A DNA stretch of 64,000 nucleotides, from NCBI GenBank assembly GCA_030264375.1, contig JASCQW010000132.1, forward strand, positions 81,283,860 through 81,347,859. Direction: 5' to 3'. Position numbers and translations under genes: made by a program. The stretch is from Carcharhinus longimanus (Eukaryota). Positions within the stretch are counted from its first letter, which is position 1, and each line of letters opens with the position of its first letter. The notes beneath the pieces were generated by a model. It was not told where the DNA came from. It worked only from the letters and a program-made list of their open reading frames with translations, and made no database searches. This document shows positions 8,605 through 26,500 of the stretch, in pieces.

Positions 8605-8723
8605 TTAAGTTCTTGGCTCAAGTCTGTGAGAAAGCTGAAATAAGGTCTGTTGGTTGTCAATAACGTGCAAGTGGTGGACATAAGACTTCACATCCTGGTG
8701 GTCTTTCTGAGTATCATCTGCAG
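8605..8723 (-). CDS. RAPGEF5: RAPGEF5-like terminal coding exon: [38 protein letters not shown]
   Basis: Family C-terminus 'SYV..L.VID.Q..LF.LSHR.EPR'. TAA at 8605-8607, attacag acceptor. Confidence 0.92.
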
Positions 8724-9620
8724 CTGTAATCAGAGGAGAAAATGCTGTAATGACTGTCACATCGAAGTTTGCTTATTTGTCAACTAGGTGTCTCAAATGC
8801 ATGGAACTTCAGCATTAAAGGTAGAAAATGTTACAAGAGAAAAGTTCAACAGAAACGTTGCAGTAACTTTGTCTGCGTGTGTAAATGGTGTTTCTGTTAC
8901 ACATCTGGTGACATTATGGTTGCAGACTAGGAGCAGCTGTAAGGAAATCCATTTATATTTAGGACTCTCCAAAATAAGCCAGTAGAAAGTCCAATAAACC
9001 CATCTTGAGTGTTTACTGAAACCACTGTGTTAGCTGAGTTTCACAGTGCCAACTGATGAGTTAGACAGAAGGTGGCACTGAAGGCTTGACTTACAGCAAA
9101 CTGCCTGCTTTACAGTAAAACTACTTACTCAGCAGTGCCATCCACTTAAACAGTGGACAACAGCAAACAGTCTTTTTAAAAAGGATCTCCACGAACTACA
9201 GTGAATTGAAATCATGTCACAAACTACAGAAATGTCTCCTAAGGGTAGCAGGTGATTTCTCCAGTAAAAGCGGAGGGTACTTAAAATACAAATCAATTAA
9301 TTCCACTGAAACATTTAGTGAGTGAAGGATAATTATGTCAAAATTCTGTGCGTAAAATCAATCAGACAGAGCAAACCTACAGTTTGAAGATTGAAAGTGC
9401 TCACCTCTAAATATATTCCCAACAAAAGTTAACTTATCGGGTGACTTTTTTTCACCAAGTGATCCATTTTTACAAAATTAAAATGCTAGATAATTAATTT
9501 TCTCCTCTATATATTGTGCATGTGTCAAGAAGGAGCTGAATTAATGGCCAGTTGAGAGGGAGCATCCTTTTTTTTGTAAATTTTGTTTATAGTTTTAAAT
9601 TTTAAAAAATTATTCCATCC

Positions 9621-9895
9621 AAAAAACCAAATTCAAATTGAATTCAATTTGTGATCCTCACAAGAGAGACAAGCAACACCCAAGTGGATAAGATGAGGCA
9701 TTGCACCCCATCCTGGGCATGATCCGATGCTTCATCTTTGCCAAAAGGCCAAGATGGCTTTGAAAAATTGCATCAGGCGATGCCTCAGTTGAACCTCATT
9801 GGCTACTTGATGATTGACTCTACCCTAGCCCAGGAGATCCACTTGCATGATTATGGTTTCACCCCTGCCAGATAAATGAAGATTGAGAGGTAGGT
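9621..9895 (-). other. Composite snRNA-derived element: U1-like, U4-like and U2-like segments
   Basis: U1-like 9824-9877 (ATTTATCTGGCAGGGGTGAAACCATAATCATGCAAGTGG). U4-like 9782-9806 (GTAGCCAATGAGGTTCAACTGAGGC). Sm-like GCAATTTTTCAAAG 9758-9771. U2-like 9730-9754 (TCTTGGCCTTTTGGCAAAGATGAAG). Confidence 0.75.
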
Positions 9896-10627
9896 NNNNN
9901 NNNNNNNNNNNNNNNNNNNNNNNNNNNNNNNNNNNNNNNNNNNNNNNNNNNNNNNNNNNNNNNNNNNNNNNNNNNNNNNNNNNNNNNNNNNNNNNNNNNN
10001 NNNNNNNNNNNNNNNNNNNNNNNNNNNNNNNNNNNNNNNNNNNNNNNNNNNNNNNNNNNNNNNNNNNNNNNNNNNNNNNNNNNNNNNNNNNNNNNNNNNN
10101 NNNNNNNNNNNNNNNNNNNNNNNNNNNNNNNNNNNNNNNNNNNNNNNNNNNNNNNNNNNNNNNNNNNNNNNNNNNNNNNNNNNNNNNNNNNNNNNNNNNN
10201 NNNNNNNNNNNNNNNNNNNNNNNNNNNNNNNNNNNNNNNNNNNNNNNNNNNNNNNNNNNNNNNNNNNNNNNNNNNNNNNNNNNNNNNNNNNNNNNNNNNN
10301 NNNNNNNNNNNNNNNNNNNNNNNNNNNNNNNNNNNNNNNNNNNNNNNNNNNNNNNNNNNNNNNNNNNNNNNNNNNNNNNNNNNNNNNNNNNNNNNNNNNN
10401 NNNNNNNNNNNNNNNNNNNNNNNNNNNNNNNNNNNNNNNNNNNNNNNNNNNNNNNNNNNNNNNNNNNNNNNNNNNNNNNNNNNNNNNNNNNNNNNNNNNN
10501 NNNNNNNNNNNNNNNNNNNNNNNNNNNNNNNNNNNNNNNNNNNNNNNNNNNNNNNNNNNNNNNNNNNNNNNNNNNNNNNNNNNNNNNNNNNNNNNNNNNN
10601 NNNNNNNNNNNNNNNNNNNNNNNNNNG

Positions 10628-10827
10628 GGTTTCCTCCGGGTGCTCCAGTTTCCTCCCACAGTCCAAAGATGTGTGGGTTAGGTTGATTGGCCATGCTAAA
10701 TTGACCTAGTGTCAGGGGAATTACCAGGGTAAATATGTGGGGTTACAGAAATGGAGCCTGGGTGGGATTGTAGTCAGTGCAGGCTTGATGGGCCGAATGG
10801 TTTCCTTCTGCACGGTAGGGATTCTAT
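10628..10827 (+). mobile_element. HE1-like SINE, 5' part lost in gap
   Basis: Core and tail match the 7299 copy. Confidence 0.85.
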
Positions 10828-11470
10828 AACCAGAAATTACTTAGCACTTAGTACTGTAGAATAATCCTTCAGCATATAAATGTACCTGCTTCAGTCCTCT
10901 AATCCAGTTGTTAATTGGCCTATTAGTGGGGTAAAGTGCAGATATTCTGCTCTTGTCTGAGAATTTAATACACTGCCAGAGCTTATTGGAAATGTGGTTG
11001 ACTGCAGTGTACAATTTATTGATGATCTAATTAGGTGGAAAATCATGTGCCAAGTGTCCCTACATTTCCAATATATGTGATCAGTTGGAAAGGATTCCCA
11101 CAAAGTCGGAAACTTATTTCTTTAATTTAAACCTATAGTCAACCCTGAACAAACATTGAATATTAGACAATTCCACAAGTCTAGTTTTAGCTTTTATTCT
11201 ACAGGTTGTGCAAAGACTGCAAAGAGCAGAAACTCCCACTTTGTAGCATTATTTTTGTTACTAAATTTGAACCATTAGATATTTTCTTAAAAACTGCAGC
11301 TAAAGATGACTTTGAATTATGAACAGATAGCCCTTGATTGATAAAACTTAAATCCAATTGTCTTCGGATTTACTGTGAACTTACGCACATCAAATACCTA
11401 AGCACATGGAAACTGACCTTGAAACAGCAATCATTCAAGAAAATATTAAATATATACAAATTACACATAC

Positions 11471-11535
11471 CAGCTTTTCAAAGTTGACAAGATTGTCCAG
11501 AAAGGTTTTGTTTCCTTCATGGATAAATGTTACGT
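11471..11535 (-). CDS. RAPGEF5: RAPGEF5-like exon: (D)[21 protein letters not shown]
   Basis: Matches the recalled RAPGEF5 segment. tattag acceptor, gtatgt donor, 65 nt. Not in the ORF track. Confidence 0.95.
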
Positions 11536-12254
11536 CTAATAGAGAAAAGGATGACAAAGTCACAAAAACAGTTAAATGTGGGTATAAGCTACAGGCTCAA
11601 TAACACAGCAGAGGCATCAATTTGGACTGTAGTGTTGACTAGGGAAACCATAATATCTCCATTCATTTGGTGAATTATCGTTATCATTTAATTGAACTAT
11701 TTGAGCAATGTGCTTAAGACACAATGAGGTAAAACTGTGTATTCCTAAAGTACTTCTAATGTTTGGACTAATCTCACTACGTAACGCACATGTACAGCGC
11801 TAGTGCAAACAGTCATTTTCATTGCCTGGGTGATAATCTAATGGAGCAGATTATTCAGCTTCTGCAGAATCTGCCAGATTTACATTCTATTGAATTCATT
11901 GCAATAAATGGGATAAACATTGGGTTTGTTATCTAGATTCATGCTGTACTCAGGAGAGATATTAAGCCTTGCCAGTGTTTGTGCAATTGTAATCCAACAA
12001 GGAAACAATCCCAATAGCAGAAGAAGGGAATGGTGGGGGGCTTGGGTGAGAGTTGAGTGGTAGAGAGGGAAATAGTGAGAAAAAGGACATTTAACAAGAA
12101 ATACATAGGTTGACATCTTCCAATCCCACCTGGGTAGGCAGGATGGAAAATTCAGAAAGATGGTCAAACACCCATTGACTTTGGCTGGGGATCTGAAGAT
12201 CCTGGCCATAAGTTTAGGTTTTTCAGAAATTTTTTGACAAGGTTCCTTTTTTTA

Positions 12255-16204: not shown

Positions 16205-16870
16205 CGAGTAAAAGAGCTTACATTTGTCTAGCACCTTTCCTGACCTGAGGATATATCACAGCATTTCACAGCCAAGGCAAGAGCAAAATAATGCAGGTGC
16301 TGGAATCTGAAACAAAAACAGAAAATGCTGGAAAAATCTCAGCAGGTCTGACTCCACCTGTGGGAAGAGAATAGAGGCAATGTTTCAAATCTAAATGACC
16401 ATTCGTCACAACAGCTCTGACAAAAGGTCATCTAGACTTGAAAAGTTGGCTCTACTCTATCCCCACAGATGCTGTCAGACCTGCTGAGATTTTCCAGTAT
16501 TTTCTGTTTTTATTTCACAGCCAATGATGTGCTTTTAAACTATAGTTATTGTTTTAATGTAGGAAACACAGCAGCCAATTTGCACAAGTAAGATCCCATA
16601 AAAAATGAAATAATCGATCATATCATTGGTTGGATGGAGGAAAGATAATGGCTCAGCCGCTGGGAGAACTGCCCCACCTTTCCTCACGTGGTGCCATAGA
16701 ATCCTTTGCGTCTAACTGAGGCTATAATCAGGACCTAAGTTTCATTTGAAAGATGGTAACTCCAACACTGCATCACTCCCTCAGTATTGAACTGAAGTGT
16801 CAGCAGATTATATGCTCATATCTCTGAAGTGCATATTGTGTCTTATGACCTTCTACGACAGAGATGAATG
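16205..16870 (-). mobile_element. DeuSINE-like copy with a palindromic Penelope-related insertion (16283-16512)
   Basis: Reverse complement of the 1675 element motifs. The insert is a long hairpin atctcagcaggtctgac...gtcagacctgctgagat. Confidence 0.6.
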
Positions 16871-24509: not shown

Positions 24510-26500
24510 ATGATCCAATCTACGTTCAGTCTCCTGAGTGTAGAGGAACAGTGAACAGTGAATATATTAGGATAAACTGAAAGCTGTACAAGTAAACCAC
24601 TGCTTCACCTGGAAGGAATGTTTCAGGCCTAGGACTGTGAGGAGGTAAAGAGGCAGGCATTACCTCTGAAAGCTACTTTGGGAAGGGAGTGAGGTGTTGG
24701 AGGTGTTAGAGGATTGGACCAGTGCGTCACAGAAGGAATAATTCTTTCAGAACGCTGATGGGAGGGGAATATTTGTTTGTTGGTGAAATCATGCTGGAGG
24801 TGATGTAAATGGTGAGAATGATTATTTGAATGCAGAGGCTGATGAGTGGAAAGTGAGGACAAGGGAAGAATATTGTGCTAATATAAAGGCAATATACTGC
24901 AGATGCTGGAATCTGAAACAAAAACAGAAACTGCTGCAATATCTCAGCGGTTCTGACAGCATCTGTGGAGAGAGCATAGAGTTAATGTTTTGAGTCAGGA
25001 TGACACTTTATCAGAGCTGTTTGACATTTTTCTAGGAAGGAGGGGAAAGGGTGAGAGATAGAAGTGCGGCAATGCATCGGGCACATTTGAGGGCCCTGAC
25101 AACCACACTGTTCGGGGGAATCCTTGGTTCAAGTAAAAGGAAGACATCTCAGAAATTCAAGGTGGAAGGTGACATCATCAGAATAGAAACAAGGGAGACA
25201 GAGAAACAGATGGGATCAAACAGAGTCTTTGCAGGAAGCAAAGTGTGAGGAGGTGTGGTCAAGGTAGTTGTTGGATTGGTGGGCTTGTAGTGAATGTTAG
25301 TAGACAGTCTATCCTCAGAAATAAAGGCAAGTTGTCAAAGGAGGAAAGTGTTGGAGCTGAACCATGTGAAGGTGAGAGGAGGGTAAAGATTGGAAGCAAA
25401 ATTGTTTATTTTTTCCAATTTTGCAAGTTAGCAGAAAGCGGCACCCATACAATCATCATTGAGTTGGAGAGAGAGTTATGGAAGGAGATCTGAGTTGCAT
25501 TGGAATAAGCAATGTTCCACATACACTACAAAAAGAAATTGGCATATCTAGAAGTATGCCATGTTATTGGCATAACATGTGGATACCCATAGCCACATCT
25601 TTTAGTTGCGACAATTGGGACAGGTTAAAGGAGAAATTGTTCAATGAGAGAAAAAGTTTATTCACGTGGGGGAGGGTAGTGGTAGATGGGGACTGTTTAT
25701 TAGAGCTGTCAGATGGTTCTGGTGGGGGAATGGAGGGATTGGCCATCCATGGTGAAACAGGAAGTGGTTATGGCCAGGATAATGGACCTTGTTGGAATGA
25801 CACTGGATGCCAAAAGAATCAAAAATGTAGATGGGAAGCAAGCAGATTTATTCTGAACCTGGTTCAGCCAGATGAAGCTGTCCTATTTCAAACTCACACC
25901 TGAACATCCACTCTCCGCAACAATTGTGTCACAGTACTTTTCTATTAATTTGAATGACAATTCCAATAATGACAATTTGGATTTAAATAAAAGCAAATTA
26001 CTGCAGATATTGCAATCTGAAACCAAAAGCAAAAATGCTGGAAAATCTCAGCAGGTCTGGCAACATCTGTAAGGAGAGAAAAGAGCTGATGTTGAGTCCA
26101 GATGATCTTTGTCAAAGCTCTGACAAAGGGTTGTCGGGACTTGAAATGTCAGCTCTTTTCTCTCCTTACAGATGCTGCAAGACCTGCTGAAATTTGGATT
26201 TAAATACTGCCTTTAAAGTAGAAAAATAAGGCAAGGGAGGAGTTGTTACAAGTGTTGACAAAAAAGTGTTTAAGGGTTTCAAAGGAGGAGAAAGAAGTGG
26301 AGATGTCCAAGGATTTTGGGTGAGAGGGAAGGGTGTGGAGGTATGTTGGGGGGGCAGAGGAATAGAGCATGGGGTCCAGATGGCTGAAGACATGGAAATG
26401 TTTGCAGAAAATACTGGAATCAGACAGAGGTGCAGGGGCTGGGGAGTTTGTGTGCCAAACAAACATTTCTGCAAGGACATATCCAATGGCTCTGCATTTT
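24510..26500 (-). mobile_element. Degenerate Penelope-like RT region with hairpin inserts (24884-25020, 25988-26195)
   Basis: SLNNFSFN..QLKDVAMGIHM resembles the Penelope RT motif NxFxF..Q.xGVAMG. Confidence 0.65.

Follow-up and report, generated by a model that had tools for sequence, protein, structure and literature searches.

The window studied here, a stretch of 64,000 nt from Carcharhinus longimanus (GCA_030264375.1, contig JASCQW010000132.1, positions 81,283,860-81,347,859 of the forward strand), contains within an intron what is very probably a decayed copy of a shark retroposon family built of U1, U4 and U2 snRNA pieces, a family that probably arose when the reverse transcriptase of a Keno-like, Tx1-type LINE copied a small number of master RNAs. 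The copy lies on the minus strand at 9611..9879, where it is full-length; it belongs to the subfamily that we call A1 and is 87.7% identical to the majority sequence of 30 copies.

From 5' to 3' on the minus strand, the copy opens with a U1 head corresponding to U1 nt 1-51, that is, the 5' end and stem-loop I (9829..9879), followed by a short duplicate of U1 nt 14-34 (9807..9826; in the A1 majority 20/21 to the U1 variant gene L047). Then comes U4 nt 23-47 (9782..9806), which we take to be the kink-turn of the U4 5' stem-loop and which agrees with the U4 gene L031 at 22/25 positions in this copy and at 24/25 in the majority. A T-run (9757..9771), matching U4 nt 116-130 (its Sm-site context) at 12/15 positions, precedes a U2 5' piece with stem-loop I (nt 7-31, 9730..9754), which is 22/25 to the U2 variant L053, the majority reaching 25/28 over nt 7-34. 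The remainder consists of a U2-derived body part that carries a hairpin (9678..9725), degenerate U2 sequence reaching nt 123 with an altered Sm-site region (9611..9677), and an A/T-rich tail ending in an A-run (9568..9610). The initial annotation had the order U1, U4, T-run, U2 right, and its coordinates hold; the second U1 piece was absent from it, and it ended the element at 9621, whereas the U2-like sequence continues to 9611 and the A-rich tail to 9568.

The U1, U4 and U2 reference genes used for these comparisons came from the same genome, and none of 1000 shuffles reached the score of the window copy against any of the three. The window head is closer to the U1 variants L045 and L046 (40/49) than to L047 (37/49). 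The Rfam comparison that had been suggested as a check finds the U1 part (31.1 bits, E 1.1e-5), but its U2 and U4 matches (E 0.33 and 1.1) are not significant; the full-length U1 alignment that it offers is a forced fit, the 3' two thirds fitting U4 and U2 better. With a U1 score of 31.1 bits against a cut-off of 69.5 and no promoter-bearing copy among 30 loci, this is not a functional snRNA gene. An Rfam scan of the whole 64-kb window gave no second copy and no U4 or U2 match at E<=1; weak matches to microRNA models at 16355-16471 and 26068-26170 are far below cut-off and likely represent chance hairpins. The proposal that the T-run derives from the U4 Sm-site context has moderate support, since 16 of 1000 shuffles do as well as the A1 sequence and only 1 of 1000 as well as that of subfamily B (13/15). 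A U1 or U2 Sm site can be ruled out as its source (256-986 of 1000 shuffles as good). Judged against the Sm consensus, the G after the run is altered, which makes Sm binding by such an RNA doubtful. Both Sm-like sites are altered in the family, and its majority has U1 stem-loop I and the U4 kink-turn intact.

The host gene is RAPGEF5, on the same minus strand, and the placement of the element in a RAPGEF5-like intron in the sense of the pre-mRNA thus stands: for one host exon the best matches are sharks at 95%, with tetrapods at ~78-80%. The last coding exon lies at 8608..8724 (minus strand, 95% to residues 636-674 of P0001) and the exon upstream of an assembly gap at 11471..11542 (minus strand, 96% to residues 594-617, with a RasGEF match). 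Residues 618-635, an 18-residue exon, have no match in the window although both flanking exons do, so the N-run at 9896..10626 most likely holds this penultimate exon, and the element would sit in the probable last intron of the gene. The gap begins, as had been noted, 18 nt upstream of the U1 segment (counted from U1 nt 3). The accompanying idea that it hides more of the element is unlikely: that exon is expected there, and the copy is bracketed by a candidate target-site duplication, with its 5' copy at 9883..9893 and its 3' copy at 9552..9562 on the minus strand. This direct repeat, 10/11 and weak on its own, suggests that the 5' end of the copy is probably complete. The far edge of the gap (10627-10840) shows what we take to be a resemblance to the 3' part of another common shark repeat, some of which may thus lie in the gap as well.

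Searching the genome with the element gave 3391 first-look candidates, and all 40 of the matches that were scored are significant, at 77-83% to the window copy (itself excepted). All 30 fetched copies have only the ~270-nt unit in common, with no common flank. An 18-base sequence spanning the junction of the T-run and the U2 piece, present in 7 of the first 30 copies, occurs exactly 211 times genome-wide, its backwards control not once. The proposal of a multi-snRNA retroposon family, as opposed to a one-off pile-up, is thus borne out. A blind sample of 80 stretches of 10 kb, 711 kb once N is excluded, contained four clear copies, two truncated A-type and two B-type (two additional weak fragments being left out of the count), and the reversed control contained none; scaled to an assumed genome of 2.4 Gb, this gives ~13,500 copies of all subfamilies, with a 95% range of 3,700-35,000. 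Both A and B copies have A-rich 3' tails. Target duplications are found in 9/30 B copies, against 0-5 in 10 mismatched sets, and in A barely exceed background (4/31 against 0-3; 3/26 against 0-2). Rfam returns only snRNA-type matches for seven family loci and the window copy, and the family is not a classical Pol III SINE: it has no tRNA, 7SL or 5S head of the kind that comes with an internal promoter, and it contains internal T-runs. It is a dispersed retroposon with fixed internal junctions and subfamilies. DNA contigs from organisms F and G show a summed depth near 9,000 on the element and ~10 in the flanks, which is not a copy number; this pile-up puts the family in a second organism, F perhaps being the source itself.

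Three subfamilies can be told apart by their heads and hairpins. A1, with the order of parts described above and a single hairpin, has a majority sequence identical to L047 over U1 3-51 (49/49), and its copies average 86.2% to that majority. The sole U4 mismatch of the majority is a CpG column, at which 11/30 copies have the G of the gene. Since the window head is nearer to U1 variants other than L047, heads have been exchanged. A2, comprising 16 of 30 junction loci chosen by eye, carries two hairpins, and its U1 head extends further than that of A1, aligning to U1 9-95 at 69/76 positions across a deletion. Subfamily B also has two hairpins, its head is U2 5-40 (36/36), and its copies are 93% identical to their majority; it yielded 3806 candidates. 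The B linker is predicted to pair with the U2 branch-pairing segment. The U4 piece is intact in the older B variants L034 and L064 and decayed in the young majority, which has lost the kink-turn, so U4 is evidently dispensable for mobility. By eye, the linker of the older variants (L034:1975-2000, L064:2290-2320) is weakly like a collapsed U1 5' end, a hint that B may descend from a U1-headed ancestor.

Several U1 variant genes of this genome (L045-L051, L228-L236, L238) differ in stem-loop I, and one group of them, degraded members included, has a conserved upstream region and 3' flank in common. At L258 and L259, an A1 copy carries its U1 stem-loop I unit (~38 nt) in a gap-interrupted tandem array of at least eight units, and in L199 the U1 head of an A2-type body is replaced by what, by eye, is a tRNA-like sequence. 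U4 and U1 retrocopies that lack the SINE body and are either 3'-truncated or internally deleted are also numerous (L038, L040, L041, L042, L241-L243, L249). Near 96.73-96.75 Mb of contig C162, within ~20 kb, a U4 gene cluster (L031, L033, L034, L227) is found together with a B variant of the older kind, a copy of A2 and a B head that has a LINE inserted in it.

The ~100 nt at the 3' end, initially described as a unique tail, proved to be degenerate U2. Over the 119 nt beyond the U2 piece there is a colinear alignment with nt 19-123 of the U2 variant L053, with a score of 147, reached by none of 2000 shuffles; two other U2 variants give 19/2000 and 9/2000, and U1 and U4 give nothing. Family pieces in organisms A and B retain the U2 stretch that is deleted in A1. 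Nearly the whole length of the element is accordingly of snRNA origin. Its last 45 nt are also weakly like the 3' end of the LINE described below (as good in 25/1000 shuffles for A1, 7/1000 for A2 and 313/1000 for B).

The body hairpin can be mapped onto the U2 branchpoint-interacting stem-loop by alignment and folding, in the register given in the available part of PMC13019295: pairs 25-45 and 28-42, mismatches at 27-43 and 30-40. The hairpin has the same pairs, with the branch-pairing segment in the loop; A1 closes both mismatches and mutates the branch-pairing loop, and two of its changes, U43A and A30G, are those of the stabilising mutants described there. The folding energy is -4.5 kcal/mol for the native U2 stretch and between -15 and -23 for four good copies. 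Across five subfamily versions, 47/50 upper-stem cells pair, against 40.6 in shuffles (6/20000 as good), and in a set of 26 actual sequences, made up of the five best per version and the window row, which was misaligned, 33 cells are changed on both sides, against 11.4 in shuffles; two of the five measures on this set do not go beyond shuffles (47/500 and 426/500). The structure was derived from the very sequences tested, there are only five versions, and relatedness inflates the compensatory counts, so that these changes are good, if not final, evidence for selection on the structure of the master RNAs. An antisense-U1 origin of the hairpin loop has no support in A1 by eye, the only candidate being a 10-mer located elsewhere.

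The LINE was reached through a zf-RVT search covering 20 zf-RVT loci and 20 extended stretches. It is ~5 kb long, with ZCCHC3-type ORF1 domains, a zf-RVT domain and a weak endonuclease match (PF03372, E 3.5e-4, below the Pfam cut-off). Of its distinct 3' ends, 23 were readable: B comes immediately after five of them, the remainder of a U2 gene after two and other DNA after 16. Among five near-full-length 5' ends, four open with a U2 piece and continue with a motif that resembles the beginning of the SINE hairpin, and the remaining one comes after a B copy. Arrays in which LINE and B are nested also occur; at L227, it is the U2 head of B that contains the LINE. There is thus a strong physical association of B with a Keno-like, Tx1-type LINE. 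For A-type copies there is a single such adjacency (a fragment directly behind a LINE end, in L004), so the LINE link for A depends mainly on its homology to B.

The likeness to Keno, a U2-targeting member of the Tx1 clade (PMC4494074), consists of the weakly matched endonuclease/exonuclease/phosphatase-like domain and of the U2 site: in L074 the LINE flank begins exactly at U2 nt 39, which the available part of PMC4640811 gives as the Keno/Utopia insertion site. The shark LINE differs in that 16/23 ends lie outside U2 and full-length copies carry their own U2 piece at the 5' end. At L074:1711-2135, tandem U2 genes are both broken near nt 38/39 by A-runs and LINE pieces, as in Keno-like targeting. 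At L234:767-905, a U1 variant that retains its upstream region ends abruptly after ~40 nt, and the opposite strand of the contig has a zf-RVT match; possibly a LINE was inserted there in antisense in a U1 gene.

The same data bear on other ways in which such a family could have arisen. It might be an internally deleted, non-autonomous derivative of the Tx1-type LINE, consisting of a U2-like 5' end and a short 3' end, with U4 and U1 gained later; the U2 head and hairpin-start-like motif at the LINE 5' end are what one would then see, as is the likeness of the A2 and, less so, the A1 tail to the LINE 3' end. However, body and tail are colinear with U2 19-123 and relatives retain more of that stretch, the tails are A/T-rich and the B tail is no closer to the LINE than many shuffles, and the LINE could equally have acquired its head from the SINE; such a derivation is improbable. 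Similarly, the master could be a host-functional chimeric shark snRNA variant and the repeats its retrocopies. Full-length copies do begin at snRNA +1, the compensatory changes imply selection on RNA structure, and the genome has several U1 variant genes with common upstream sequence; but none of the 30 loci fetched with the L047 upstream region and head is a promoter-bearing chimera, the Sm-like sites are altered, and the exchange of heads and loss of the kink-turn among subfamilies are typical of selfish elements. We consider this quite improbable as well. That the copies are independent template-switch chimeras without a master element is very unlikely, even though two or more U1 variants supplied the heads and additional 5' extensions of U1 or U2 sequence turn up repeatedly: hundreds of copies have the same internal junctions and the same linkers of non-snRNA sequence, body and tail carry subfamily-diagnostic changes, and the 211 exact junctions largely refute such an origin. 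The outermost 5' extensions may still arise in this way.

At the level of the individual copy, the window element could have been kept to modulate RAPGEF5 splicing through the binding of snRNP proteins to the pre-mRNA, given its sense orientation, its likely position in the last intron and the survival of the upper hairpin and the kink-turn motif. Nevertheless, changes disrupt both stem-loop I and the lower stem of the hairpin, and the divergence of the copy is ordinary for A1 (87.7% against a mean of 86.2%), so there is hardly any likelihood in this. Folding of the whole copy is mildly better than that of shuffles (5/200 as good) and that of its hairpin alone is no better (27/200). Most likely, the copy is an inert passenger.

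Returning to the retroposon family mobilised by the LINE, we would propose that a U2-derived core came first and then gained the U4 piece, and that U1 or U2 heads were added later to this U2/U4 core, the pieces being joined by template switching during reverse transcription. The master RNAs would be transcribed by Pol II from outside promoters, Pol III being disfavoured because of the internal T-runs, and would be mobilised in trans by the reverse transcriptase of the U2-targeting Keno-like LINE. The stabilised U2 hairpin may have been retained by selection on the masters, as may the U4 kink-turn in A and in the older B variants. A search for a master locus with the upstream region and head of the U1 variant L047 found the upstream region in 10 of the 30 fetched loci, none of which continues into the element, and no promoter-bearing copy among six exact matches of a 24-mer head junction. 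It is possible, if rather doubtful, that the master RNA is a snRNP mimic that keeps protein-binding modules of U1 (stem-loop I), U4 (the kink-turn) and U2 (stem-loop I) with its pre-mRNA-pairing parts disarmed, and that uses snRNP maturation and nuclear routing as its way to the reverse transcriptase of the U2-targeting LINE without poisoning host splicing. On this reading, the disarming consists in the mutated U2 branch-pairing loop within a locked branchpoint-interacting stem-loop, in B in an added inverted copy that would bury this loop, and in A1 in a U1 5' end that is predicted to be partly paired.

The closest known system is SINEU of crocodilians (PMC4494074, Kojima 2015). The initial annotation had supposed that known snRNA SINEs each carry one snRNA type; this is contradicted by SINEU-2 and several SINEU-1 subfamilies, which combine U1 and U2 pieces. 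SINEU-3 is an internally deleted U2, and the SINEU partners are Tx1 LINEs bearing U1 or U2 heads (PMC4494074). Like SINEU-1, -2 and -3, the shark family is short and A-tailed, with internal T-runs, U1/U2 heads repeatedly added at the 5' end, tandem insertions and, as a likely partner, a snRNA-headed LINE of Tx1 type. SINEU has been reported only from crocodilians, and the published main text describes neither a U4 part nor a conserved RNA structure (PMC4494074); it prefers Mariner-N4_AMi as a target, whereas no shared target repeat of the Mariner-N4 kind is seen in the flanks of 30 shark loci. With its U1 or U2 heads (A1 and B), a length of <500 bp, multiple copies and an A-tail, the shark family fits the class of snRNA-headed SINEs; it shares neither the crocodilian host nor the Mariner-N4_AMi targets of SINEU-1/2/3 and may not belong to these families. 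The comparison was one of published descriptions, and the origin of the shark family is likely to be independent of SINEU.

Chimeras of U6 with LINE-1, and other snRNA-LINE chimeras, similarly arise when reverse transcription links a snRNA piece to a retroelement, but in the available part of bioRxiv 10.1101/2025.02.02.635956 they are one-off insertions, whereas the shark family is amplified, with fixed junctions and almost no LINE sequence. SacSINE1 and CmiSINE are also non-autonomous retroposons of chondrichthyans, but have tRNA-derived heads and L2 tails, and the term snRNA does not occur in the available text of their paper (PMC5499810). Neither a shark nor a U4-containing snRNA SINE was found in the open-access literature searched, nor in the available parts of PMC5381603, PMC4758252, PMC5499810, PMC8010984 and bioRxiv 2025.02.02.635956; a curated entry in Repbase or Dfam is quite possible. 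What is new relative to that literature is the occurrence in a shark, the presence of a U4 module and the conservation of structure; the joining of U1 with U2 was already known from SINEU.

A second, likely independent radiation of snRNA SINEs beside a U2-linked Tx1-type LINE would make the birth of such elements a repeatable outcome of U2-targeting LINEs. The original description of SINEU left its transcription and RNA biology open (PMC4494074). The shark subfamilies form a series of natural compensatory mutants of the U2 branchpoint-interacting stem-loop that includes the A30G and U43A changes made by hand in PMC13019295, so that what such RNAs bind, and how splicing stays undisturbed in their presence, becomes directly testable.
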